DNA from: an uncultured virus (IMG/VR IMGVR_UViG_3300042526_000204)
Lineage: Duplodnaviria > Heunggongvirae > Uroviricota > Caudoviricetes
DNA length: 20,000 nucleotides
Virus record (IMG/VR): IMGVR_UViG_3300042526_000204
Direction: 5' to 3' (one strand)
A program made the translations under genes and the position numbers. This document shows, piece after piece, positions 5,321 to 19,888 of the stretch. The notes under the pieces were generated by a model. It was not told the origin of the DNA and searched no databases. It saw only the letters and a program-made list of their open reading frames with translations. Position 1 is the stretch's first letter. Each line of letters opens with the position of its first letter.

Positions 5321-8300
5321 TTATCTTTCTGATTGTTTTTTATCCAAAGCTGAGAAGTTAAAGATTAATCTTGTATCAGCAAAGTTATCAAATATTAACC
5401 TTACCACCAAGAACTTATCTCTGAAACTTTCTAACTGTGACCAATCCTTATTGTAATCAATAGCACTAGGATTAACTACCTTATCTATGTAATAATTACT
5501 TTGAAGAGAAGCTATATTTTTTAAGAACATAGGTACAGTATGAGCTCCAAAAAGGTTGTCTTGTTTTCTATAATCTTTAAGGTTGTTAAGAGTCCAGTCT
5601 CTTTCATTTCTATCTACTGTTACTACTCCTGGAGTATTACTAGTCTGTTGGAAGAAATAGTTGGTGCTATCATTTTGTTTAGGTGCTAAAGTAAGCATTC
5701 CAGTAGTTTGTAAAGTATTATAGAATACCCCTTTGTTAAAAGTCATATTAGGTTGATCTAAATACTCTTCTGAAACAGGGTCAAACTTCTTAGCTTCAGT
5801 TTGAAATAATATGTTATCCCAAACCTTAGTTGTTAAAGGTGAAGGGTTATCTACATACTCTACAATAAAAGGATAAGTAGTTCCATAAAAAGTTTGATAG
5901 TGATTAGGTCTGTTATGTTTCCATATGTAGTTAGACCCTTGTGGCCAAGAATAAAACTTTTCTTGAACATGCATATAGAAACTAGGAATATAAGGATGCC
6001 AACTTACCCACTCTTGTCTCTTTAAAGAGTAAGACATAGTGTACCCATTGTTTAGAATTTGAGGAACAAAGACTTGACCATTTTCATATTCTATTTGAGT
6101 TACAGGATATGTATTTGTAATTTCTACTTCTGTTCTTTCTATAGTAGAAGTTAAAACATTCTTCATATCTAAAGCAAATTGACAAGGAGAAATCATAAGT
6201 TCACTACCTGGACAATCTGTAGTAGCTAATGTAACTGGTATATTATTCTTATCAGAAATTACTGACCACCCATATTGTTCTAGTCCTGGATTAGTATCAG
6301 GAGCAGTTATTAAAGTTTTGTAAGGGTTAACAAGAAGTTTACTTTTTAAAGTTTCCCAATCTGCTGCAAGAGCTGGAGTAGTTGAAAAATATAAATTAAG
6401 AGGAAGATCATTAACTTCTGATATAGTATAGTTTCTCCCCTTAACAGCAGCTAAACAGTGCATAAGAAAGTTCTTAGATTTTGGAGTAGAAATTACAGGA
6501 TAACATATACCAACAAACTTTTCAAATGTAGAATGTACTCCACTTGCCCCTGTAAAATTATTATAATGAGTTGTGTAAGAAGTAGTAGGTTGTCCAGTAA
6601 AAGACATAAGTAAAGTACTAGTTACTATAGTTTGAGGAATTTGAGGATAAGTAGGAGGAGGTCCTAAAGGATCATTTACATATACTATTATTGTTTTATA
6701 AACATTATTGTAGTAAGGATTTACTTCATCTACAGCTTCATTTACAAAAGAGAGAAGTAGAACTTTACCTCTATCTGCTAAAGGAATTAAACTAGGGAAG
6801 TTTAACCATTTCTCTGTAGAGTTATAAACTTTTTGTGAAGTCCCTGTCCAACCTGAAGGCTCTAATTCATCAGTAATCCATTTATCAAAAGCATCTTCTA
6901 ACTGAGCTAACAATACAGGTTCCATAGTATCATCAAAGAAAGCCCAAACATCCATATCATTAGAAACAGAAACAAACTTAGTAACTGTATCAGTTTTAGT
7001 TTGGTAAGTAGTTTTTTCAAACTTCATCTTACAATCTTCTATACCAATATAATCCCACCCTGCTGCAAGTCTTGTTGCTATTATTTGGGCCATGTTAGGA
7101 AAAATAATAGTCTGACTTCCTTCAGAACAAATCTCATAAGAATTTAAAGGAAGATTAGTTATCTGACTATCTTTCTTAGTAATAATAAACCTTTCTTTAT
7201 TACTATCATAAGTAGATAAGAACCCTACTCCTAAAAGATTTGAGGGATTATTGTTGTATGGATATTCTCTTTTATTAATCTCATAGTATTGATCTTCTAG
7301 TAAAAAGTCCATGTGAGTTTTAAAGTAATTGCTATTACCACTATCACTAATAGGTTGTAAACTTTCTCCATTAAACAAATACCATTTCTTTTCTTTCCAA
7401 GATGGAAATAAGATACCATACTTAGTTTTAGTTCTTGCCCACTTATGTCTATTACCAGCAGAAGAGTTACTATCATCTACCATCTTTCTAGGAGGAATAG
7501 AAAAATACTCTCCTGTTCCAATAAAAGTTATTACATCATTAGTAACTCTTTCTTGGAAAGTCTGAGGACAATGCCATAACCCTTCTTCAGTATGAATATA
7601 AAGATTGTTTTGTACTCTAAAGATATCAGTAATCTCACCTGTCTCAGCTTCCAAATCTTTGTAGTTGTTAGGTAAGAACATTCTAAAGTTATCAGTAAGT
7701 TCTTCTTGGAAAGCTTGTTCTGACCAGTGCCATCTATGAGGAAAAGTTTCTATACAATCTGAACAACAATCATATTCTAAAGCTAAATGATTAAATATTT
7801 TTTGCTTGTTTCTTCTTGTATAATCAGGGTTTATTAGATAAACTTCTCCTGGAGGTATTTGTAAATAAGATCTTCCTCCTTGTCTTTTTTCATCTAAGTA
7901 GGTTAATTTGTTTAGCATGTAAAAATCAAAAGTAGTTGTAGGAAGAAGAGTGGTATCTCTTACATACCAAACACCATGAAACTCCCCATTAATTTCTACA
8001 TGGGTAACACCAGATTCTACTTTCCCTGGAGAATCTATAAAACCTGTAGTACCATCACTGAAACTATGTCTTAATCCCATGTTTACAGCTGACTCAAACC
8101 AAAGATTTACACACTCTCCTAACCATTGAATTTCATCATCTCCAGGATTAGCACTAAATCCTCTTTCATTAAATGAAACAGGGTCAGTATCATACAAAAC
8201 AAAACTGTCTGAAATAGTATCTCTTAATCCTACTTTATACATTTGATTATAAGCCTTACTCCAAGCTTCTGTTTTTACACCTGATAAAGTTAAAGCAACA

Positions 8301-11300
8301 CCTACTCCTGCCACAAGACCTATACCTGCTGTAATAGCTGCAGCAGCTACAAAAGAAAGAGTTCCCCAACTAATTACAGATAATACTACAGCTCCTACAA
8401 TTAAAAGAACTCCTACAAATATAGCCCAAAAACCTTTTTTTGTGGCTCTCCTACTTATTCTTGTATCATAGTAAACAGTGTTAACATATCTTATAGAGTT
8501 TATATAAGTATCTCCATTAAAGATTACACAACTGCCTTCATTAGTAGTATCATTAAAAAGTTCAGGATTCTGACTTTCTTTATAATAAGGATCTAATCTA
8601 TAGTTAGAATAAGGTTCTCTTAACTCTCTATATAAATAAACATAAGGTAATTTTCTAACAGGGTAGTAAACAAAATTTTCTTTTAAGTGTAATATACCTA
8701 TTTTATTATCTATAGCTAGATTAAAAACATTTACAGATGTATCAGTACTATCTTCAGTTAATCTATCTTCAAGAGCATTTAAGTAATAGATTTCTTTAAT
8801 ATCATCTTTATCTAAACTAAAAGAATTAGATGATTTAAAGTCTGTAAAAGTTTCTCTAGTTTTAATTTGAAGACTCCAACCATCATCATCAGAACCTTTA
8901 TGTCCTCTTTGCTTACTAGTTCCAGGTGCTACATCTTGTATTCTTACTCTACTTTTTACAACTTCTTCTTTTTCAAACTCTCCTTGTTGAATAATTTTAT
9001 TAAAAACAGAATATTTTCTACCATTAAATTTATGTTCAGGAGAAACAAAGGCTACTACATCTTTCTTAATTCTTTGAGCTTCAGTAGCAGCAGTATTAAA
9101 TTCAGGAAATATGAGACCTTGTGCTACAAAATTCTTTTGTTGTGTTGTAGAGAGAAGAACAGCACTATCTACAACAGTTCTGTCTTCTTCTTTTCTTTCA
9201 TTTCTTACAATATAATATCCTGTAACTTTTACTCCTCCTGTTACTTCTAGAGTAGGTCTTTGAATATTAGAAAACTTAATTCCAAAAATAGGACACACAT
9301 ATAAAGGTTCTTCAGAAAATAGTATTCCTACATATTTAGTTACTGTGTAAGTCATTCCAGTTACTCCAGAGGTTCCAGTATAAGAATATGTTTCTGTAAT
9401 TGGATCAAAAGTAGGTCCTGTTAAAGTTACAATGTTAATTTCAGGGTCTGCACTAGAATCTAAAACTTCTCTAATTTGAACTACTCCAACATTTAATCCA
9501 TTTATAGGAGAAGACTGTGCTGTATATTCTACATTTATACCATTGTCTTCATCAGGACCTATAGCATATTCTGCAGGGTCTATTGTCCCTGCATAAAAAG
9601 TTTCATTAATTGTACCATCAATAACATAATCTACTTCATAACTATATACACCACCAGGGTCATCAGGACTTCCAAAATCTGCTGGAGTTGAAGTACAAGG
9701 AGGTTCACCAGGAACAGGGTCAGGACAAATTACAGGACAAACAGCATCTTCTTTACTAACTTTTACTATTAATCTAGTTTGTTCAAAACTAGTGTTATCA
9801 GCTCCTTCAGTTACTTTTTCTACAAAAGGAATATTGTAATCAGTTCTTAAAGGAAACCTATGATGTCTAACAGGTTTATCAGTAAGACTAACTCCTTTAG
9901 AATCTTCTCCCCAATAAGTATCTATACCACAAGTAGGGTTATCAATGTATCTTGTAGATTCACATTGATTATCAATGTTACTCATAGGATAAATGTTACT
10001 ACCTACAGAATACATTTCATCTAAAGGAGTTCCAATATCAGGGTTTTTCCCAGGTATATGATACACAGGAGAAGTAGTGTTATCTTCAAAAATATAAACT
10101 ATACCAAAAGAGTATATCTCCCCTGGCATATAACCTACCCCATTAAAGTGAGCAGCAGGATCTTTAGAATTAGCTTCACTATCTTTAGATACTATTACAG
10201 TCTTTGTAATCATATCTGCATTAATCTTGCTAGCAAATTTTTGAAGTTTACAATAGTTAATTTGTTTTCCTTCTATGTTACCGAGGACTAATCTGTTTTC
10301 AATTTGTTCAATACTTTGAGCTTTGTCAATAATATTGTTAAACATTGTTACCTCTTCTTGAGAACCAATACTTTCATAGTTGGTTCCTGTGTAATTAAAA
10401 AAAGGTTGTTTTGTAGAAATTTCAGAAGTATATTTAGTATCAGTAATTAAACCTCCACCTGCAGTAGCTTCTGTTATTGCTAATCTATAGAAAGGAAAAT
10501 CAGTATCTAAACTAGTTGGGTCAAATTTAATTCTAATAGCTTTGTTACTAACAGGAAAATCATAATAAGTACTTTCTTTTTTTCCAGTAGCCCCTTTTTT
10601 ATCTTTATAAAGAGTTGTAGCAGGGTCATTATAAATACTTATAGTTTCTGTACTTGTTACAAATTCAGTAGGGTTAAAATCTTCATCAAGATACTGAATA
10701 GAAAAATTATAAGAACCAGGAGCTAAAGTTCCTGATGCATCTAAAACTTCAATACTTTCTACTACAGGTATTTTTTTGTAAACTTTAAATAAGTTAAACT
10801 TAGAAATAACCCACTCACCTGTAGTCTTATCTTGAAACTCTTCTTCTTTGTCTAAGATAAACATTCTAGGTTTAGGATCAATCCAATACACAACTCTCTC
10901 ACAACCTCTTCTTAATCTAAAAGTGGCATCAATTTGTTGAGTTATTTTAAAACCCATTTTTTCATCTTGATTCTTATCACTAAAAACAGTAGTAAGATTA
11001 CAATTTTTATCTGCTATAACCATAGCAGAGTTTCCATTAGGATTAGCTAAAAACAAAAGAGTATTCTCATCACCAATATATACCTTACCTATAGGCACAT
11101 AATTAACCCCTAATAAAACTTCATTAAGAAAGTCATAACAGTCTTCATTAGATTCTTCATTTGCAAGAAAACCTAAATCTCCTTCTTTAGTTTCATTTAC
11201 TCCTGTCAGAACAAATCTTGTGGTTCCTTGAGGTTGAGTGACTAAAGAGGAGTCTGTATTTAATCCCCCTGGTTGAGTTACATTACCTTCTTCTCCTCCA

Positions 11301-11344
11301 AGTTCTTGTTGTAATTGTTTTACAATACTTTTATCCTTTGCCAT
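5321..11344 (-). CDS. Tail stabilisation/muzzle (nozzle) protein, P22 gp10 / crAss001 gp44-like, with large insertions
   Basis: 2007 aa. It starts with GGLNTDSS, contains GYMPGEIYSFGIVY, RHHRFP and FLPNNYKDL...GEIT, and ends with TMSYSL...WVSWHPYIP...FRDKFLVVRLIFDN. These motifs are typical of crAss-like tail stabilisation proteins. It follows the tail tubular gene. Confidence 0.8.
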   Translation of the reverse strand: MAKDKSIVKQLQQELGGEEGNVTQPGGLNTDSSLVTQPQGTTRFVLTGVNETKEGDLGFLANEESNEDCYDFLNEVLLGVNYVPIGKVYIGDENTLLFLANPNGNSAMVIADKNCNLTTVFSDKNQDEKMGFKITQQIDATFRLRRGCERVVYWIDPKPRMFILDKEEEFQDKTTGEWVISKFNLFKVYKKIPVVESIEVLDASGTLAPGSYNFSIQYLDEDFNPTEFVTSTETISIYNDPATTLYKDKKGATGKKESTYYDFPVSNKAIRIKFDPTSLDTDFPFYRLAITEATAGGGLITDTKYTSEISTKQPFFNYTGTNYESIGSQEEVTMFNNIIDKAQSIEQIENRLVLGNIEGKQINYCKLQKFASKINADMITKTVIVSKDSEANSKDPAAHFNGVGYMPGEIYSFGIVYIFEDNTTSPVYHIPGKNPDIGTPLDEMYSVGSNIYPMSNIDNQCESTRYIDNPTCGIDTYWGEDSKGVSLTDKPVRHHRFPLRTDYNIPFVEKVTEGADNTSFEQTRLIVKVSKEDAVCPVICPDPVPGEPPCTSTPADFGSPDDPGGVYSYEVDYVIDGTINETFYAGTIDPAEYAIGPDEDNGINVEYTAQSSPINGLNVGVVQIREVLDSSADPEINIVTLTGPTFDPITETYSYTGTSGVTGMTYTVTKYVGILFSEEPLYVCPIFGIKFSNIQRPTLEVTGGVKVTGYYIVRNERKEEDRTVVDSAVLLSTTQQKNFVAQGLIFPEFNTAATEAQRIKKDVVAFVSPEHKFNGRKYSVFNKIIQQGEFEKEEVVKSRVRIQDVAPGTSKQRGHKGSDDDGWSLQIKTRETFTDFKSSNSFSLDKDDIKEIYYLNALEDRLTEDSTDTSVNVFNLAIDNKIGILHLKENFVYYPVRKLPYVYLYRELREPYSNYRLDPYYKESQNPELFNDTTNEGSCVIFNGDTYINSIRYVNTVYYDTRISRRATKKGFWAIFVGVLLIVGAVVLSVISWGTLSFVAAAAITAGIGLVAGVGVALTLSGVKTEAWSKAYNQMYKVGLRDTISDSFVLYDTDPVSFNERGFSANPGDDEIQWLGECVNLWFESAVNMGLRHSFSDGTTGFIDSPGKVESGVTHVEINGEFHGVWYVRDTTLLPTTTFDFYMLNKLTYLDEKRQGGRSYLQIPPGEVYLINPDYTRRNKQKIFNHLALEYDCCSDCIETFPHRWHWSEQAFQEELTDNFRMFLPNNYKDLEAETGEITDIFRVQNNLYIHTEEGLWHCPQTFQERVTNDVITFIGTGEYFSIPPRKMVDDSNSSAGNRHKWARTKTKYGILFPSWKEKKWYLFNGESLQPISDSGNSNYFKTHMDFLLEDQYYEINKREYPYNNNPSNLLGVGFLSTYDSNKERFIITKKDSQITNLPLNSYEICSEGSQTIIFPNMAQIIATRLAAGWDYIGIEDCKMKFEKTTYQTKTDTVTKFVSVSNDMDVWAFFDDTMEPVLLAQLEDAFDKWITDELEPSGWTGTSQKVYNSTEKWLNFPSLIPLADRGKVLLLSFVNEAVDEVNPYYNNVYKTIIVYVNDPLGPPPTYPQIPQTIVTSTLLMSFTGQPTTSYTTHYNNFTGASGVHSTFEKFVGICYPVISTPKSKNFLMHCLAAVKGRNYTISEVNDLPLNLYFSTTPALAADWETLKSKLLVNPYKTLITAPDTNPGLEQYGWSVISDKNNIPVTLATTDCPGSELMISPCQFALDMKNVLTSTIERTEVEITNTYPVTQIEYENGQVFVPQILNNGYTMSYSLKRQEWVSWHPYIPSFYMHVQEKFYSWPQGSNYIWKHNRPNHYQTFYGTTYPFIVEYVDNPSPLTTKVWDNILFQTEAKKFDPVSEEYLDQPNMTFNKGVFYNTLQTTGMLTLAPKQNDSTNYFFQQTSNTPGVVTVDRNERDWTLNNLKDYRKQDNLFGAHTVPMFLKNIASLQSNYYIDKVVNPSAIDYNKDWSQLESFRDKFLVVRLIFDNFADTRLIFNFSALDKKQSER

Positions 11345-11346
11345 AA

Positions 11347-12375
11347 TTATCTCATATAAGCTGAGTTACCTGATGTGTATCTGTATTTGTTTGTAAAGTT
11401 AGGATCATTAAATATCCTATCTTCTGCTTTACCAAGTTTACCAAAGAAACCATAGTATCTTTTATTTCTAGGTAGTAAGTAGTTTCCTTGCTCCATAAGG
11501 TTTTCATACTCATCAGTTCCCCAAGGCATTTTAGCTTTGTTCTTAAACTGTTTAATGTATTTCAACCATCTAGCTTCAGCTACTTGAGCAATCTGCATAG
11601 CACCTTCTCTGTGGTTCCAAGCTTCTCTTTCTTTTACTTTCCAACCTAAGTAGTAAGTAATAGCTGCTTTAGCTGACTCATCATCAGGAACCATAGGGTA
11701 ACCTGTTTCTATATCTACCTTAGTTCTAAGATAAGCTACAGCTACAAGACCTTCCTTAAAACTAAATCTAAGTTGGTCTTCAATTATGCTATACTCATCT
11801 GTAAGAGAGTTGCTATTATTATACAAGCCATCACTGTCTTTGCTTTGACAAACTAGTGTATTAAAGAAAGTATGATTAGCTAGTCTCACTGGAGTAAACT
11901 TACTTCTAAAAGCTTTAGAGTGAACCCACCCTAAATATTCATACTGAAGATCAAAATAAGGTCTGTAGTATCCCACTTCAGGATCTCCTATTAACTCTCC
12001 ATTACAATCTAATAAAACCATGTCATGTGCATGTGAAGTACAGCAAGTAGAACATCCACAATTTGTGTGAGGTGTTTCTGAGACAAGATCAGTAATAATA
12101 GCTTGAGGAGTACAACTAACTTTTTCAGTAGCTGTCCAAGTATTATTCTTTGCTACTTGGATTATGTATTGTAATCCATTAGGCAAAGTAGCTTGATAGT
12201 TCTTAACCTCTAAAAAAGCAATAGCTTCTTCTGACATAGTAGCCATTTTCATGTGCCCTAATGCTTCTCCTATCCATTCAATAGCATCATCTTCATTAAG
12301 CTCATTGCCTCTGAAGTCTCTTAGATACTTAGATAGGATTGTATCTACACTTACATATTGAAATCTTTGTTGCAT
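11347..12375 (-). CDS. Tail tubular/ring protein (P22 gp4-like; crAss-like ring 1)
   Basis: 342 aa. It carries YVSVDTILSK...DAIEWIGEAL...VKNYQATLP and FSFKEGLVAVAY...GYPMVPDDES...AITYY, as in crAss-like tail tubular proteins, and lies immediately upstream of the muzzle gene. Confidence 0.75.
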   Translation of the reverse strand: MQQRFQYVSVDTILSKYLRDFRGNELNEDDAIEWIGEALGHMKMATMSEEAIAFLEVKNYQATLPNGLQYIIQVAKNNTWTATEKVSCTPQAIITDLVSETPHTNCGCSTCCTSHAHDMVLLDCNGELIGDPEVGYYRPYFDLQYEYLGWVHSKAFRSKFTPVRLANHTFFNTLVCQSKDSDGLYNNSNSLTDEYSIIEDQLRFSFKEGLVAVAYLRTKVDIETGYPMVPDDESAKAAITYYLGWKVKEREAWNHREGAMQIAQVAEARWLKYIKQFKNKAKMPWGTDEYENLMEQGNYLLPRNKRYYGFFGKLGKAEDRIFNDPNFTNKYRYTSGNSAYMR

Positions 12376-12647: not shown

Positions 12648-14075
12648 TTATGCTTTAGTGTATTCAAGAATTAATAAGAAGTCATTGATTGTAATGGCAC
12701 TTTGTGCTTCTTCAAATGTAACATTATTTCTATTAAGCATAATAACACCTGTAGAACCAATTCCAACATTAGAAGTAGCTCTAGCCATAGTAATTGGAAA
12801 AAACCAAGCAGCATCTTCTGTTGTAACACCTACAGGTGCATTAACAGTAACATCAGCTCTAAGGTACTTATCAATGTTTAAATTATGAACAATACCTACT
12901 CCTGCTGGAGCATCTAAAAGACCAGGTACAGTGAAAGCAATTACCTTTCTGTAGATAGGTTTACCATCAATCCAAGTTCCTCCTGTAAGAGCTTCTGTTT
13001 GAGAATAAGAATTATTTAGTTCTATAGGTTTATCAACTCTAATAATATTTGAATTATTATCAATGCCTAAAATTCTTCTGTTGTCTATGGTGATTTTACT
13101 AACACTATCAACACTATTGTTAACATAATAAATATTACCTAATGAATCTACAGTAATATCAAAAACATTTTCGTCTTCGCTTATAGTAGTTAATACACTT
13201 GTAGGAGTTCTTTTAACTACTTTTAATGCCCCACCTACATAAACATTATTTAAAGAATCTGTAGTTATACAATAAGGAAATACTACTGCGGTACTAAAAA
13301 CACTTCTTGCTCCTCCAGAAGTAATCCTATTTATAGTGTTGTTTGTATGACAAGTAAAAACATTACCTAATGAATCTACAGTTATATCTGTAGGATCAGG
13401 ACTTATAATACTTAAAGTACTAGGTGTTCCAACAGAGGTAATTTTAGTAATATTACTTGAAAGTTTATTAGCTGTATAAATATTTCCTGCTGAATCAACA
13501 GTTATAGCTCTAGGTTCGTTTCCAACAGATGCAAAAATACTTGGGTTTCCTGCTGGAGTTATTTTAGTAACAGTATCATCTACAGCACTACAAGTATATA
13601 TATTGTTTAATGAATCTATAGTTATGGCAATAGGTTTATTAATTGTACTAGCAAAAACACTTGAAAACCCTCCTGAAGTTATCTTAGTTACGTTATCCGA
13701 ACCAAAATTACAAGTATAAACATTACCTGAAGAATCTACTACTATTCCAATAGGCTGACTTCCTGTTGTTCCTAAAGTACTTGATGTTCCATCTGGAGTA
13801 ATTTTAGTTACATTATCTGAAAGTCTATTAGCTGTATAAGTATTTCCTAATAAATCTCTAGCAATACTATAGGGTTGAGATCCTGTAGTTCCTAAAATAG
13901 AAGTTGTATTTTCAATAGGTGGTATAGCTACTTCTATTTCATTTGAAATAATGTTAATATTTTTCCCTTCTAATAATGTTTGACCACTACCCCCTAATTG
14001 TTTTTTTGTTTGGTAGTATAAGTCTACTACTAATTGCTCTAATTTCTTTATTCTGAGTAATAACTGCTTTTCCAT
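12648..14075 (-). CDS. Putative fibre/receptor-binding protein: shared leader, 7 NHL/Vgb-like beta-propeller repeats and a C-terminal fibre-tip-like domain
   Basis: 475 aa. Seven ~40-aa repeats (P-x-x-I-x-x-D-S-x-G-N-x-Y...V-T-K-I-T) at about aa 60-332. The C-terminal YSQTEALTGGTWIDGKPIYRKV is a motif common in phage fibre C-terminal domains. Confidence 0.7.
   Translation of the reverse strand: MEKQLLLRIKKLEQLVVDLYYQTKKQLGGSGQTLLEGKNINIISNEIEVAIPPIENTTSILGTTGSQPYSIARDLLGNTYTANRLSDNVTKITPDGTSSTLGTTGSQPIGIVVDSSGNVYTCNFGSDNVTKITSGGFSSVFASTINKPIAITIDSLNNIYTCSAVDDTVTKITPAGNPSIFASVGNEPRAITVDSAGNIYTANKLSSNITKITSVGTPSTLSIISPDPTDITVDSLGNVFTCHTNNTINRITSGGARSVFSTAVVFPYCITTDSLNNVYVGGALKVVKRTPTSVLTTISEDENVFDITVDSLGNIYYVNNSVDSVSKITIDNRRILGIDNNSNIIRVDKPIELNNSYSQTEALTGGTWIDGKPIYRKVIAFTVPGLLDAPAGVGIVHNLNIDKYLRADVTVNAPVGVTTEDAAWFFPITMARATSNVGIGSTGVIMLNRNNVTFEEAQSAITINDFLLILEYTKA
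13080..13898 (-). repeat. Seven tandem ~120-bp coding repeats (beta-propeller blades)
   Basis: Examples: ILGTTGSQPYSIARDLLGNTYTANRLSDNVTKITPDG / TLGTTGSQPIGIVVDSSGNVYTCNFGSDNVTKITSGG / IFASVGNEPRAITVDSAGNIYTANKLSSNITKITSVG. Confidence 0.9.
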
Positions 14076-14553
14076 TTTAGTTTAAATTAAATTAAGTTAA
14101 TCTTATTTTTACTACTCCTGCTGTGTGATATAAACCTCCAACAGGTATTCCTCCTGCTGCAGCTAAAGCATCAGTTGCGTAATCATTTGATAATGGTGCT
14201 GTCATAATAAATTTACTACCTGTGACATCACCTGTTCTGTTTACTGAAAAAGTAGTTGCACCATTATTTGCCCCAACATAACAAAAACCTGTTGTAAGAC
14301 TATTAGAATATATACCTATACCACCATTAGCAGTTATTGAAGATAAAGCAGTTGATCCAGGTTGAGTATTAAAATTTCTTACAGCAACATTTATTGGAAA
14401 TCCAATATTTTCAAAAGTTTTTGCTCCTTCTATAGATTGATTACCAGTTATTAAAACTGCTCCTGCTTGTTGAGTACCACTTCTTACATTACGAAATAAG
14501 TCTACCACTAGTTGTTCTAGTTTCTTTATTCTAAGTAATAATTGTTTTTCCAT
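14019..14553 (-). repeat. 57-bp dispersed repeat at the 5' ends of two adjacent genes (14497-14553 and 14019-14075)
   Basis: Both copies encode MEKQLLLRIKKLEQLVVDL. They match at 50 of 57 nt, and all 7 differences are synonymous. Confidence 0.95.
14092..14553 (-). CDS. Short fibre-like virion protein with the shared N-terminal leader
   Basis: 153 aa. TGNQSIEGAKTF is a tail-fibre shaft-type motif. The C-terminus YATDALAAAGGIPVGGLYHTAGVVKIRL is of a type seen at the ends of phage fibre proteins. The first 19 aa are identical to those of the next gene. Confidence 0.65.
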   Translation of the reverse strand: MEKQLLLRIKKLEQLVVDLFRNVRSGTQQAGAVLITGNQSIEGAKTFENIGFPINVAVRNFNTQPGSTALSSITANGGIGIYSNSLTTGFCYVGANNGATTFSVNRTGDVTGSKFIMTAPLSNDYATDALAAAGGIPVGGLYHTAGVVKIRLT

Positions 14554-14584: not shown

Positions 14585-16894
14585 TTATACACAAGGTACA
14601 TACACAAAGTCAATAGCACCACTTACTTTTCTAATACAAGTTACACAAGAATCTATAACAGAAGATAGTAAAGTGTTAGGTGGAAGATTTACAGCTCCTA
14701 TATCTTCTGAACAAGTTACAACATATATTTCTATAGTCTCAGTTAAACTAGGGTTTAAAATATCAAATTCACAACAACCTGCTTTATCTATACCTTCTCC
14801 TTTTGAAAGAACTTGTGCCATACATATACTAGTTCCTGAAGTTAGTACAAAATCTTGAACCCAAGTTCCATCACATTTATAACCAGTAATTGTTTGGTCA
14901 CTAATAAGATTATTTATGTAAGTATCACAACATAGTTCTTTACCTGGACAGTATCTTCCAAAAATACCATTAATAAATTCAGTGCAATCTGTACAATCTT
15001 TATGCACTCCTCCAATATCTGATGCAGTAATTGTAGCTACTCCTGTATCACTCCAAGATAATATTTCATAACAACCAAGACCTGTTGTAAGAACTAGTGA
15101 TAGTGCTTCTCCTACATTATACACAGGTTGTAAAGCTACTACTTCAATCTCTTCTGTACAACAATTTTGTACTGTGTAATAAAATGTTGTTGGGCATTCA
15201 TTATCTGCTAGACAATCAGTACAAGCATCAGTACCATAATCTACAGCAGGAATAATAAATGATAAATCAGGAAAAGCATAAACAGTACCAGTAGTCATTA
15301 TTGTCCAACACATTCCAAAAGTATCAACAAAAGTACTATCAACTAAAAGACTAGGTAATGTAGTCTGAAGTAATTCTAATGTAGTAAAGCCAACTAATTC
15401 TCCTTCATTACAACAAGAACTTAAAGCTACCACAGTAGGACAATCATTAGCAGTAACACACTCTGCACTTAAACAAGTTGTATTAGGATAAACTGTATCT
15501 ACTTCTACTACATTTGTAATAGGACCTCCTGTTATTTTTGTTACACCCCAGCAGAATCCATTTACATCTACAAAAGTATCTCCTACATTAACTCCAATTA
15601 AAGCTGCTGAAAATACTTCTTCTTCTTCTTCTTCTCCACAACAAGGCTGAATTGTAAAGTTTTGAGGACATGGATTATTAGCCATACATAAAATACAATC
15701 TTCATAAGAATTAGATAAAATTCTAGTTGATGTTACAGCATCTAATGTTGTTGATTCTACACTCCAACAATTCCCATCACTGTCAACAAAAGATTCTCCA
15801 ACAGGAGTTCCATTATTAATAATGATTTCTGAGTAAGCAGGATCACAGCAATTTCTAATAAATAAATTTTCTCCTATACCAATACAAGCTTGAGTAACAT
15901 CTAATGTATAAGAGAATCTAACATCTATTGGAGCAATAGTGTCTCCTTCCTCAGTACCTACAGTCATACCTACAACAAAAAATGTTTCATCTGCAGGTAA
16001 CACACTTGCTAACACAGTTGTTTCTGAGAAACAAACTTTTAAATTATTACTAAGAAATGAATATGGAGCAACAGGTATCACTGTAGATAATGAAATAACA
16101 CCATCTCTAGTTGAGATAGTTGAACAATCAAAACGTGAAACAGTGATATAAAATTTAGGGTTGATTAACTCTACACTGTTAGTTACATCAAGATATGCAA
16201 TACCAGAAATTTTTATTGTATCTCCTATGTTTAAATCTATAGAAAGAGGAATACCAATATTAGCAATTAGACCTTTTGTAACAATTAAATTTCCAAAACC
16301 ATCAACTGCAAATGATGATTCATAGGCTCCATAAGACCAACCAAGACGAGAAGTAAGATTTCCACCAAACATAGATTCTATATTAGGAGAATTATAATTG
16401 TCTGATTCAAAAGCCCCAGACACTGCAGCTAATTTAAAGTGGTCAGGACAAGATCCTCCTCCTCCAGTACCAGGAGGACCTATCTCTCCCTGAAGACCTT
16501 GTTCCCCTTGTTCACCTTGAAGACCTTGCTCTCCCTGTTCTCCTGTATTTCCTGTGTCTCCTTTAGATGCTACAAGTTGCCACCCATTACTAGGTGGAGA
16601 GAAAGAAGAAAAAATTAAAGTAGGAGCATAATAAGAAGAACCATTAAACTCAACTACATCTCCTTCAGAATAATCAGTTCCATTTACCCAAGGTCCAGTA
16701 AAATTCCAAAGAGCATCTATACCATCTGCACCTGGCTCTCCTTGTTCTCCTTGTTCTCCTTGTTCTCCATCTGCACCTGGAACCCCAGGTGGGCCTGGAG
16801 GACCAGGAGGTCCCTGTTCTCCTGAAGAAGGAAAACACAAGCACTGAAAAAGGTGCTCTAATTTTTTAAGTCTGTGTTCAAAATTATTTAGCAT
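14585..16894 (-). CDS. Collagen-like fibre protein with a CBM5/12-like insert and Cys-rich tandem repeats
   Basis: 769 aa. Gly-X-Y runs at 16715-16822 (12 triplets) and 16472-16561 (10 triplets) flank WNFTGPWVNGTDYSEGDVVEFNGSSYYA...WQLVASKG. Four 6-Cys repeats follow at about aa 344-650. Confidence 0.75.
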   Translation of the reverse strand: MLNNFEHRLKKLEHLFQCLCFPSSGEQGPPGPPGPPGVPGADGEQGEQGEQGEPGADGIDALWNFTGPWVNGTDYSEGDVVEFNGSSYYAPTLIFSSFSPPSNGWQLVASKGDTGNTGEQGEQGLQGEQGEQGLQGEIGPPGTGGGGSCPDHFKLAAVSGAFESDNYNSPNIESMFGGNLTSRLGWSYGAYESSFAVDGFGNLIVTKGLIANIGIPLSIDLNIGDTIKISGIAYLDVTNSVELINPKFYITVSRFDCSTISTRDGVISLSTVIPVAPYSFLSNNLKVCFSETTVLASVLPADETFFVVGMTVGTEEGDTIAPIDVRFSYTLDVTQACIGIGENLFIRNCCDPAYSEIIINNGTPVGESFVDSDGNCWSVESTTLDAVTSTRILSNSYEDCILCMANNPCPQNFTIQPCCGEEEEEEVFSAALIGVNVGDTFVDVNGFCWGVTKITGGPITNVVEVDTVYPNTTCLSAECVTANDCPTVVALSSCCNEGELVGFTTLELLQTTLPSLLVDSTFVDTFGMCWTIMTTGTVYAFPDLSFIIPAVDYGTDACTDCLADNECPTTFYYTVQNCCTEEIEVVALQPVYNVGEALSLVLTTGLGCYEILSWSDTGVATITASDIGGVHKDCTDCTEFINGIFGRYCPGKELCCDTYINNLISDQTITGYKCDGTWVQDFVLTSGTSICMAQVLSKGEGIDKAGCCEFDILNPSLTETIEIYVVTCSEDIGAVNLPPNTLLSSVIDSCVTCIRKVSGAIDFVYVPCV
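14945..15865 (-). repeat. Four ~70-80-aa Cys-rich coding repeats (CC...VGxxFVDxxGxCW...CxxC...CP)
   Basis: Visible in translation: NCC..VGESFVDSDGNCW..CILC..NPCP; PCC..VGDTFVDVNGFCW..CLSAEC..NDCP; SCC..VDSTFVDTFGMCW..CTDC..NECP; NCC..VGEA..GLGCY..CTDC..YCP. Confidence 0.9.
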
Positions 16895-16897
16895 GAC

Positions 16898-17368
16898 TTA
16901 TGATTTTATTAGATATTCTTTTCCTTGTTTTATACTATAATGTATAGTTCTTTTATTAGCTCTAGTTAGAATAAAGTTATAATAAAGTTTATTCTCTATT
17001 GGCACTCTATTCTTAGACCAGTGTAATTTATAAACTACACCATCAGTTTCTTCATTAAGACAATACACAATCTTTCTTGTTGCTTTTGCATCAGGATTGT
17101 TTTCCCAAAGCTTCTTAGTCTTTGACCAATTAGGAGGCAACATTGGAATACCATCTTTATTAAATTGTAATTTCTTTTTTACTCCTTGAATAAACAAAGT
17201 ACCTAATCTAGCAGGCATTGTAACCTCTTCTCCTTGTACTGCTTTCTGAATTAAAAACTCCATGTAACCATTAGCTATTGAGATAAAAGAGTTTATCTCA
17301 ACAGGAGTCTTTACTTCTTTAGAATATCTTTTGTAAGAAGTTCTTATATTTAAATCAGTCTTTTGCAT
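16898..17368 (-). CDS. IHF/HU-like DNA-binding protein (crAss-like IHF family)
   Basis: 156 aa, basic. It has a helix followed by QGEEVTMPARLGTLFI (HU/IHF-type turn), then PNWSKTKKLW...IVYCLNEETDG...WSK. An IHF-like gene near the ring and tail tubular genes is typical of crAss-like phages. The start overlaps the upstream stop (TAATG). Confidence 0.7.
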   Translation of the reverse strand: MQKTDLNIRTSYKRYSKEVKTPVEINSFISIANGYMEFLIQKAVQGEEVTMPARLGTLFIQGVKKKLQFNKDGIPMLPPNWSKTKKLWENNPDAKATRKIVYCLNEETDGVVYKLHWSKNRVPIENKLYYNFILTRANKRTIHYSIKQGKEYLIKS

Positions 17369-18069
17369 TATCTTCCTTCAGGTCTTTGTATATCTCTTGA
17401 GTTATTAGCATTGTCTTCTCCTCTTCCTGCAAATATACCAATAATTTCTGCAACACATATATCAATTAAAGGTTCTATTAAATCTCCATCAATATTAAAT
17501 TCATGGTCATAAGCTGGAATACAATCTGTACAATTTTCACAATCATCACACAAAGAAGGAAAATGCATAGCTTCTAAAGGATCTTCAGCAAGAAGTTTAA
17601 TCTTAACTATACCTGGAGATTTCTTTATTGGAAAATACAAATAACCATTCTCAAATAAGAACTTAGGTTTGTTTCCTGTGTATTTATTACCTTTTAAATA
17701 AAGAACACCTTGTCTTGAAACTTCTTCTATTCTCATTCCATTTTCAACAGACATAACAAATTCTATGTAATGTCTATTAGAATCTGTCAATACTCTTGGT
17801 ATAGGAAATTTAGTTCTAAATACATCACAACCTAAATCTCCAAGACAAGAGCATTCATGATTAGGTACTTTAATAAGTTCTACACAAGGTAGTACAGAAT
17901 AGTTCCAATCACTAACTCTTTGTTTTTTCTTAAGTTGTTGAGAAATAAGTTGCATTCTAACTGTGAGAATTTTGTTATAGACATGTCTATCTGATAACCT
18001 AGACTCATCACTAGATACCCCTTTAGAATAAAGGGATTGAATTCTTTCTATAACTTCTCTAATAAACAT
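17368..18069 (-). CDS. Putative tail ring/adaptor protein (crAss-like ring 2 type)
   Basis: 233 aa. It contains SSDESRLSDRHVY, LPCVELIKV...C-x-C...RTKFPIP and ENGYLY...EDP...C...D-x-EFNID...NANNSRD. Size, motifs and position fit crAss-like ring proteins. Confidence 0.65.
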   Translation of the reverse strand: MFIREVIERIQSLYSKGVSSDESRLSDRHVYNKILTVRMQLISQQLKKKQRVSDWNYSVLPCVELIKVPNHECSCLGDLGCDVFRTKFPIPRVLTDSNRHYIEFVMSVENGMRIEEVSRQGVLYLKGNKYTGNKPKFLFENGYLYFPIKKSPGIVKIKLLAEDPLEAMHFPSLCDDCENCTDCIPAYDHEFNIDGDLIEPLIDICVAEIIGIFAGRGEDNANNSRDIQRPEGR

Positions 18070-18071
18070 GC

Positions 18072-18401
18072 TTATTGAATTTTAAAAATTACACCTTGTG
18101 CTAAAGCACTTGCTATTGTAGTGTTTATTGTACTATTTACTTTAACATTAAAAATTACCACTTTAGGATAATCTCCTTCTTTAACAAATGCAGTAGCTTT
18201 CTTTACTGACCAATTTGTAACAGCTCTAATAAAAGTAACTGTAGCAGTTTGTTTTGCTGCAGGTACAGTAATTAACACTAAGTCTAGTTGTTTTCCAATA
18301 CCCTGTTTTTGATCTAATTTTTTACTTTCATTAGGAAAGAAAAGACCAAAAGATAATGTACCTATTGCTTTTTTAAGTCTGTGTAATTCAAAATGTTTCA
18401 T
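18072..18401 (-). CDS. Protein with the shared-type leader fused to a divergent ribosomal L7/L12 C-terminal-like (ClpS-like fold) domain
   Basis: 109 aa. Residues ~38-109 (LDLVLITVPAAKQTATVTFIRAVTNWSVKKATAFVKE...PKVVIFNV...ALAQGVIFKIQ) align by eye with the bL12 CTD ([45 protein letters not shown]...LEEAGAEVEVK). Confidence 0.55.
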   Translation of the reverse strand: MKHFELHRLKKAIGTLSFGLFFPNESKKLDQKQGIGKQLDLVLITVPAAKQTATVTFIRAVTNWSVKKATAFVKEGDYPKVVIFNVKVNSTINTTIASALAQGVIFKIQ

Positions 18402-18403
18402 AA

Positions 18404-19108
18404 CTAATTGTTTAATTGTTGTTTTAAAATATCAGTAACATCTTCTGTATTAAAGAGTTGATAATTACCATCTAAGCCAAGCCATATAATAACTCTTTTA
18501 CTTACCTTAACTCCTACTTGTTCAAGAAGAAGTTGGTAATAAGACAACTGAATTACATAGTGATTTAAAGGATTATCTAATAAATGACTAAAGGGCCCTA
18601 TCATAGTTTTACCTTTATAGTTCTTTAGCAAATCTTTATTAGTCTTGTAATCAGCTATTATATATGATTGTGTTTTAGTATCAAAGAGAATGATATCTGC
18701 TGTACCTGCAAAGAGATGTTTAAAGTGATACATCCTAAGTTCAGCAGCTAGTGGAAGTATATGTTCTGGGACATCTTTCCAAAACTTTACAATAGCTTCT
18801 TCTTGAGGGCAAGAAGGAGAAAGGTTTCTATTAAACTGATAGACTTCTCCAAAGTTATGAACTCTGTGTCCTCTATCTCTAGACTCTTGATTTATGACTC
18901 TCCACTCTTCAAGAATTTCTTCTGTGGTTACTCCAGCTTTAGCAGCAGAGTAAGGGGCAACTAATTCAGCATTAAATGGCTCATAAAAATTAGAAATCAA
19001 CCCTGAGACTGAAGTCTTCAAAGGTTGGTTATCTACAAAATACCTATGCTTTTTTTCTTCAAAAGTCAGGTTACTAAAAGGCTTTTTTATCTTTGTCAAT
19101 AATTCCAT
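18404..19108 (-). CDS. PD-(D/E)xK superfamily nuclease (RecB/lambda-exonuclease-like)
   Basis: 234 aa. It has RGHRVH, E-L-R, AGTADII (motif II), IIADYKT (motif III) and HYVIQLSYY (QxxxY). Confidence 0.85.
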   Translation of the reverse strand: MELLTKIKKPFSNLTFEEKKHRYFVDNQPLKTSVSGLISNFYEPFNAELVAPYSAAKAGVTTEEILEEWRVINQESRDRGHRVHNFGEVYQFNRNLSPSCPQEEAIVKFWKDVPEHILPLAAELRMYHFKHLFAGTADIILFDTKTQSYIIADYKTNKDLLKNYKGKTMIGPFSHLLDNPLNHYVIQLSYYQLLLEQVGVKVSKRVIIWLGLDGNYQLFNTEDVTDILKQQLNN

Positions 19109-19750: not shown

Positions 19751-19888
19751 TTATTTTCCTTGTCCACCATACATCTTTTTATAGTTTTTTGAACTCTTTA
19801 AAGATGATGTTTTTGACTTTGAATGTACTCCAGGTCTAGATACTTTGGAGACTACTTTCTTCTCTGATGTGTTGGATAATTTTGCCAT
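19751..19888 (-). CDS. Small very basic peptide (45 aa)
   Basis: Not in the ORF track. Hand translation: MAKLSNTSEKKVVSKVSRPGVHSKSKTSSLKSSKNYKKMYGGQGK. The start lies 1 bp after the upstream TAA (TAAGATG), and the gene fills an otherwise empty gap. Confidence 0.8.
   Translation of the reverse strand: MAKLSNTSEKKVVSKVSRPGVHSKSKTSSLKSSKNYKKMYGGQGK

Follow-up and report, generated by a model that had tools for sequence, protein, structure and literature searches.

A strongly diverged bL12 C-terminal-domain-like protein encoded next to tail ring protein 2 in uncultured crAss-like phages

Phage proteins built around a domain of the ribosomal stalk protein bL12 (L7/L12) have been described before. 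According to the available parts of the main survey (Mizuno 2019, PMC6375957), some of them are 98–107 amino acids (aa) long with the domain spanning the protein, as in Dinoroseobacter phage DFL12phi1 (106 aa), Roseophage DSS3P2 (107 aa) and Ralstonia phage RSB3 (98 aa), and their genes stand in varied genomic contexts and were repeatedly acquired. The same parts record that one peptide of such a protein was seen in E. coli ribosome fractions and that ribosomes could not be purified via a tagged phage bL12, the function being unproven (Mizuno 2019, PMC6375957). Here we describe X, an open reading frame (ORF) at positions 18072..18401 on the minus strand of a 20,000-nucleotide (nt) stretch of DNA from an uncultured virus (IMG/VR record IMGVR_UViG_3300042526_000204), the whole of which is called the window below. 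X encodes 109 aa followed by a stop codon and is a diverged phage bL12-domain protein.

X fits the class of virus-encoded bL12-domain proteins, being a phage gene with a domain homologous to the bL12 C-terminal domain (CTD), and we read it as a new, strongly diverged variant of that class. Like the other members, it is a small free-standing phage accessory protein organised around this domain and comes without a uL10 gene (PF00466 was not found in four related viral records, two of them 99–100% complete). The differences lie in its place among the tail genes of a crAss-like phage, in its failure to pass the Pfam family PF00542 (Ribosomal_L12), and in its contact residues, which are replaced in X, whereas the class described in the available parts of the survey is 28–34% identical to cellular bL12 and is reported to keep the residues that contact the translation factors and uL11 (PMC6375957). 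X would therefore escape the Pfam-based screen that defined the class. Ralstonia phage RSJ5 ORF7 (92 aa) does pass PF00542, with 39.8 bits, but covers only Pfam positions 4–37 of 67, whereas X keeps the whole six-element fold.

The original prediction, made from the letters of the window alone, had placed a degenerate L7/L12 CTD-like domain at 18072-18290, which corresponds to residues 38–109 of X plus the stop codon. The domain is indeed there, as confirmed by a structural model, by Foldseek and by profile–profile alignment with hhalign. X alone gave no Pfam or PHROG match at E ≤ 10, no BLASTP alignment to E. coli RplL, and only unrelated matches (E 0.57 and 1.1) in a single-sequence phmmer search against the Protein Data Bank (PDB). 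For the family-level comparison, a first search for bL12 homologues gave only Enterobacteriaceae (at least 87% identity among the 120 rows listed); since this was of little use, the bL12 alignment (A2, 11 sequences) was built from eight diverse loci, namely E. coli and seven others from phage-collection records, together with three of the enterobacterial sequences. Many of the phage-collection records with a full-length rplL (H16-H30) are bacterial assemblies or short contigs that are unverified, with rplJ beside rplL for instance, and their rplL seems to stem from host contamination rather than from phages.

Against this bL12 alignment, the X family gave hhalign P values of 3.8e-4 to 4.1e-4 over the full length and of 1.8e-5 (probability 78%, 58 columns) when only the C-terminal parts were compared. 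When the columns of the bL12 alignment were shuffled, the observed score of 29.4 was never reached in 200 trials (mean 9.4, sd 2.0, maximum 18.2), a lenient control since shuffling destroys the helix periodicity, and the reversed bL12 alignment scored 7.8. All eight single bL12 sequences aligned to the family head on overlapping parts of the CTD (P 0.0018–0.021). Among PDB sequences, the first, narrower family profile (A1) gave only non-significant matches (a designed tetratricopeptide repeat (TPR) protein at E 0.17, 1dd3 at E 0.22 and PCNA chains at 0.5–1.8), while the profile of alignment A3, with 56 family members, placed T. maritima L7/L12 (1dd3) first at E 0.006, positions 36–100 lying on its residues 56–121, with just one further sequence at E ≤ 10. 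The TPR and PCNA matches of A1 were dismissed as chance, and only that to TPR persisted after the broadening (E 0.15).

Pfam scans covered the same number of proteins, 43 members and 13 further representatives. Ribosomal_L12 was the sole Pfam family matched by more than one of the 43 (four members, best E 0.0082), and the best of the 13, P0097, scored 19.2 bits against PF00542; the gathering cut-off of 25.9 bits was reached by none of the 56. A six-frame search of the four related viral records with PF00542 found no match at E ≤ 10. Two library proteins, P0107 and P0108, were found by A1 at library-wide E values of 1.6e-4 and 2.8e-4 and are themselves Pfam-confirmed repeats of the PF00542 helix 4/helix 5 hairpin (E 5.6e-27 and 1.4e-29). 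Both carry three to four such hairpins in tandem after a hydrophobic N-terminal segment, which is probably a membrane anchor, and both have W where the phage X family has an invariant W. The nearest ESM Atlas clusters are viral and mostly bear PF00542 (score 0.82, a lead only), and in BFVD a phage RplL matches best (E 3e-3).

An AlphaFold2 model of X, computed from 43 sequences, has a mean pLDDT (predicted local distance difference test) of 83.7 and a predicted template modelling score (pTM) of 0.65. Its bL12-CTD-like head (18075..18290, minus strand; residues 38–109) comprises a strand at 41–45, helices at 51–62 and 66–74, a strand at 80–83, a helix at 90–101 and a strand at 105–108, and in the predicted model this beta-alpha-alpha-beta-alpha-beta fold superposes on solved bL12 CTDs (against 1ctf, TM-score 0.77 and root-mean-square deviation 2.4). 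Among the Foldseek matches listed against PDB, nearly all are ClpS or bL12 C-terminal domains, 4o2x being another protein, although their significance is marginal (best E 8.6e-3, none ≤ 0.001). Pfam together with AlphaFold and Foldseek had been named in the original prediction as its check: PF00542 stayed below its cut-off, whereas the fold comparison did return the bL12 CTD/ClpS fold.

Since that fold is shared, the predicted head equally has the ClpS core, and X might be a ClpS-like adaptor that delivers substrates to a host Clp ATPase or protects them from it. We consider this extremely unlikely. The identity of X to ClpS (the ClpAP N-degron adaptor; PDB 2wa8, 3o2b, 1mbu) is 7–12%, against 16–19% to bL12, and E. 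coli ClpS gave no profile signal with the X family (hhalign P 0.13–0.27, compared with the 1.8e-5 for bL12). No match to the ClpS family PF02617 was listed for the 56 members. The N-D-D-type motif of ClpS has a role in the N-degron pocket, and N-D-[DE], as it occurs after strand 1 of E. coli ClpS, was present in 0/56. The sequence signal thus supports bL12 rather than ClpS. That the likeness is convergent, with an unrelated small alpha/beta two-layer sandwich drawing its matches from helix composition, also seems very unlikely, since HMMER against PDB, hhalign and the sub-threshold Pfam matches agree on bL12 in overlapping registers of the same domain, and since the family is linked to Pfam-confirmed L12 hairpin proteins, shares the motif R..TG[WL]..K.A..V with bL12 and shares G-D-Y with a protein of the crAss-like phage cr50_1. 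Judged from these alignments, the head of X (residues 38–109) very probably descends from the bL12 C-terminal domain. Having failed the family tests for both bL12 and ClpS, X is best described as a diverged derivative of the bL12 head that is neither a bL12 orthologue nor a ClpS.

Several of the positions that matter for factor binding differ from bL12. In E. coli bL12, residues K65, V66, I69, K70, R73, E82 and K84 reportedly bind the translation factors. In the hhalign register, the X residues at these positions (with their family frequencies) are Q51 (93%), T52 (95%), V55, T56 (variable), R59 (89%), K68 (82%) and T70 (95%), which means that K65 is changed to Q, V66 to T, K70 to T, E82 to K and K84 to T, with L78 also changed to W and R73 kept as R. 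The residue correspondences drawn by eye in the original prediction, including the replacement of K65, K70 and K84 by Q, T and T, were reproduced by this register. By its sequence, X does not carry the conserved factor-binding residue set of bL12 helices 4 and 5. The face itself nevertheless includes the best-conserved stretch of the family. It is formed by helix 4, helix 5 and strand 2 (18147..18251, minus strand; residues 51–85) and bears the bL12-like motif, and this is the segment that matches P0107, P0108 and the cr50_1 protein. Within it, residues 63–85 (helix 5, strand 2 and loops) are conserved best, with a mean frequency of the commonest residue of 0.87 at 63–74 and 0.83 at 75–85, compared with 0.61 in helix 4 (51–62) and 0.32 at residues 86–103; W64, F72, P79 and K80 are invariant in the family. 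The helix-6 region (18093..18146, minus strand; residues 86–103) is hypervariable, and relatives have insertions of up to ~25 aa there. Compared with bacterial bL12 (RplL; PF16320 and PF00542; PDB 1ctf, 1rqu, 1dd3, 8yeq), X thus has no BLASTP similarity, no match to the N-terminal domain (NTD) family, changed factor-contact positions, a hypervariable helix 6 and no rplJ-rplL context, and is no functioning orthologue of bL12.

The remainder of X consists of an N-terminal helical module (18312..18401, minus strand; residues 1–30, with helices at 3–13, 15–21 and 23–30), whose conserved positions include F18, F21, F22 and P23, and a hinge (18291..18311, minus strand; residues 31–37), which has the lowest pLDDT of the model (a block of 65) and varies in length within the family, measuring ~7–10 residues in most members. 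A second model, of the relative P0098, shows the same three N-terminal helices and the same head (pTM 0.50), joined by a hinge of 19 residues (31–49) without secondary structure and with a pLDDT of 51–57. In P0098 and P0102-P0104, longer linkers rich in V, T, A, E and P join the N-module to the head. Since the N-helices and the head are structured and the hinge is unstructured and variable, the models point to two modules joined by a flexible tether, as in bL12.

This layout raises the question of whether X could genuinely stand in for the stalk, with its N-module sitting on host uL10 or pairing with host bL12 and so altering factor recruitment late in infection. The proportions of bL12 are kept (~30 aa of helical N-domain, a hinge that is flexible and in distant members rich in V, T, A, E and P, and ~70 aa of head), hhalign of the two NTDs gave P 0.002 over 19 columns with 0/200 shuffles reaching the score, and the peptide of a phage bL12-domain protein seen in E. 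coli ribosome fractions (PMC6375957, available parts) would be in line with it. However, the bL12 N-domain family PF16320 was not among the families matched by the 43 + 13 members, TIGR00855 was matched by 1/56 at E 0.12, and inclusion of the N-module weakens the bL12 match (full-length P 3.8e-4, CTD alone 1.8e-5). The hinge is merely ~7–10 residues long in most members, the factor-contact residues are replaced, and a tagged phage bL12 failed to purify ribosomes (PMC6375957, available parts). We therefore regard a stalk substitute as quite unlikely. The original prediction held that the L10-binding domain is replaced in X. The missing PF16320 and TIGR00855 support makes this plausible, while the three-part bL12 proportions and the weak NTD signal (P 0.002) speak against it.

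The replacement was further said to be a virion-type leader, and this is unsupported. Three fibre-like proteins of the window, all on the minus strand, share a 24-aa N-terminal leader: a collagen-like fibre of 769 aa (14585-16894), a fibre-like protein of 153 aa (14092-14553) and a beta-propeller protein of 475 aa (12648-14075). X shows H-R-L-K-K at the same positions. A leader hidden Markov model (HMM) was trained on the 25 fibre-like ORFs of this leader family (three from the window and 22 from related contigs, loci L010-L026), X being excluded from training. True leaders score 40–51 bits (E ≤ 2e-12), whereas X of the window scores 5.2 bits (E 0.15), the other X members at most 1.8 bits, and the N-termini of ring protein 2 score like X. 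On these scores (5.2 versus at least 40 bits) the N-module was rejected as a fibre docking leader. In the reverse search with an X N-terminal HMM, the first matches outside the family are mostly fibre-leader ORFs, although weak (best E 0.012). By profile, then, the N-module reaches membership of neither the fibre-leader nor the bL12-NTD family. By analogy with residues 1–26 of crAss001 gp22, the 24-aa leader probably serves to dock fibres into the tail hub. The first 19 residues are identical in the 153-aa and 475-aa proteins, a sequence identity that suggests module swapping. In the 769-aa fibre, collagen-like repeats are followed by several cysteine-rich repeated modules and a glutamate run, and the distal parts of related fibres differ strongly.

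Homologue matches, representatives in the library scan and constrained evolution indicate that X is a real gene. Of 96 scored candidates, 91 match at E ≤ 0.01 (55–92% identity, 106–129 aa), and dN/dS (the ratio of nonsynonymous to synonymous substitution rates) is 0.15–0.63 across nine pairs. When 1.84 billion representatives were scanned with the family profile, 18 proteins came up at E ≤ 0.001, 14 of which are X-family representatives of 109–122 aa. Setting aside P0106 and the L12-repeat proteins, none of these 18 matches is a fusion of more than 129 aa, though this was not a dedicated search. P0106 (1132 aa, matching profile positions 70–91) and P0105 (a 58-aa fragment) were excluded from the alignments. 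Relatives of X were not found in 50,697 deposited phage records (tblastn, E ≤ 1). Among deposited genomes, those of Flavobacterium psychrophilum phages come closest to the window (~67% nucleotide identity), and each of the 29 records matched is a Flavobacterium phage.

All 14 annotated ORFs of the window lie on the minus strand, and the original prediction was right that X sits within crassvirus tail genes. Directly downstream of X lies tail ring protein 2 (17368..18069, minus strand; 233 aa; PF25702 E 2.5e-37, and E 3.6e-9 to PDB 7qog_C, crAss001 gp40). Upstream is a PD-(D/E)XK-type nuclease (18404..19108, minus strand; 234 aa; phrog_298 exonuclease E 1.5e-33, with a weak match to PF12705), and the gaps on either side of X are 2 nt each. 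Ring protein 1 (11347-12375, minus strand; E 3.8e-57) and the muzzle protein (5321-11344, minus strand; E 5.5e-38) were also identified by Pfam, which further recognises the collagen-like fibre, the beta-propeller protein and a holin-family protein. The immediate upstream neighbours of X, the holin-like protein and the nuclease, are non-structural, and the holin–nuclease–X trio is flanked by fibre-like genes. A candidate 45-aa ORF rich in lysine and serine lies upstream of the holin-like gene (19751-19888, minus strand). Downstream of ring protein 2 is a 156-aa protein, p156 (16898-17368, minus strand; phrog_12177, unknown function), which is homologous to crAss001 gp42, annotated as HU/IHF-like (BLASTP E 3e-14), and is syntenic in all 14 related loci long enough to contain it whole.

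The order holin-like, nuclease, X, ring protein 2, p156 is kept in 17/17 related viral contigs, and in each of these loci X is the least conserved of the five genes by global identity, at 35–61% compared with 71–91% for the nuclease, ring protein 2 and p156 and 51–76% for the holin-like protein. X also has the highest dN/dS of the neighbourhood in eight of the nine pairs, the exception being L021-L022. In Flavobacterium phage Fpv20 the nuclease gene abuts the ring protein 2 gene, with no X between them. The fixed position, the fast rate and the absence from Fpv20 mark X as an accessory gene that is confined to one clade, evolves fast and keeps a fixed site. The clade consists of uncultured crAss-like phages, whose nearest cultured relatives are Flavobacterium psychrophilum phages.

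The site itself suggests that X may belong to the virion as an accessory of the tail hub or fibre dock, with the bL12-like fold reused structurally or as an adaptor. In crAss001, ring protein 2 (gp40) is preceded by the tail hub proteins A (THA, gp38) and B (THB, gp39), with roles given in the available parts of Bayfield 2023 (PMC10172136), where the hub is also described as gripping residues 1–26 of a trimeric fibre. The crAss001 order is gp38 (215 aa), gp39 (114 aa), gp40, and because gp39 stands directly upstream of gp40, X (109 aa, 2-nt gaps) occupies the place of THB and has its size. No match to PF25711 (THB) or PF25724 (THA) was over the cut-off in G001 (100% complete), G002 (99%), G003 or Fpv20, while the crAss001 control gave 1.5e-57 for THB and 1.1e-85 for THA. 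The fibre-like genes on both sides of the trio and the weak fibre-leader matches of the N-terminal HMM (best E 0.012) fit the same reading. In this lineage, ring proteins 1 and 2 and the muzzle are recognised by Pfam and the THA/THB hub families are not.

The sequences do not follow the positions, however. X shares no sequence similarity with THB, which is absent among the structural matches listed for X, and the identification of X as crAss001 THB was rejected (hhalign of the family against gp39, P 0.41; no PF25711 match), as was that of the nuclease as THA (no similarity to crAss001 gp38). The 234-aa protein upstream is a nuclease and unlike THA, and X scores 5.2 bits with the leader HMM, against at least 40 for true leaders. 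Fpv20 has the same ring proteins without X, and X evolves faster than any of its neighbours, which would be unusual for a stoichiometric hub part; the absence and the fast evolution together argue against an essential structural role. On balance, we consider a virion part unlikely.

The gut crAss-like phages, which belong to the same order-level viral group, offer a further comparison, and the full-text literature search found no paper joining crAss-like phages with L7/L12. Two of their proteins pass PF00542, YP_010110179.1 of cr50_1 (141 aa, 39.2 bits) and YP_010111725.1 of cr126_1 (308 aa, 46.4 bits); together with the Mizuno 2019 class (PMC6375957, available parts) and RSJ5 ORF7, these bear out the statement in the original prediction that phage bL12 homologues were already known. 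The X family matches the cr50_1 protein (hhalign P 2.6e-4, 29 columns) better than it does any single cellular bL12, and both have G-D-Y after helix 5. No similarity of the family to the cr126_1 protein was detectable (hhalign P 0.36). The N-modules of the cr50_1 and cr126_1 proteins differ from that of X, and so do the gene contexts, since the cr50_1 gene lies in a tRNA/tmRNA accessory region and the cr126_1 gene beside a DNA primase, whereas X is next to ring protein 2. In cr50_1 (L033, 35585-36234), the bL12-hairpin gene is directly followed by a 73-aa gene annotated 'ribosomal protein-like', whose product had no Pfam match at E ≤ 0.01; with the tRNA and tmRNA genes nearby, the two possibly form a small translation-related accessory cluster.

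From the fold, homology, architecture, synteny and evolutionary rate described above, we infer a partner, a timing and an effect for X. Expression would be from the late operon during infection, and in the infected cell its re-specified helix 4/helix 5/strand 2 face, the GTPase-docking face in bL12, may be used as a stalk-head mimic that binds either a host protein which recognises the stalk head or a partner chosen by the phage, while the N-module would tether or oligomerise X. That X acts in this way, as a tethered stalk-head mimic in the infected cell, is a tentative proposal that we hold with rather less than even confidence; for descent from the bL12 CTD combined with a cytoplasmic stalk-mimic mechanism, our confidence falls just short of even. 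A more specific version is that X is a free stalk-head decoy which soaks up host proteins that must grasp bL12, and this we find distinctly improbable. Candidate targets would be stalk-dependent defence nucleases of the CARF-RelE (Cami1) type and stress GTPases. Cami1 needs the ribosomal stalk, and the bL12 chain of PDB 8phj, whose title names Cami1, is among the structural matches of X. An arms race around such a decoy would account for X evolving faster than any other gene of an otherwise conserved tail block, and for a docking face that the family conserves but that is unlike the face of bL12.

Few 'ribosomal' genes are as common in viruses as the phage copies of the bL12 head, and to our knowledge function has been shown for none of these copies. 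Screens based on Pfam thresholds undercount this class, as the X family, with 0/56 members reaching the PF00542 cut-off, makes clear. The study of X also draws attention to the fibre-docking hub in this branch of crAss-like phages, in which no THA or THB match exceeds the cut-off. Above all, the X family is a natural experiment in which the fold and the tether were kept while the factor-docking face was rewritten and then conserved, and it is well suited to asking what such heads bind, be it translation GTPases, defence proteins or parts of the virion.
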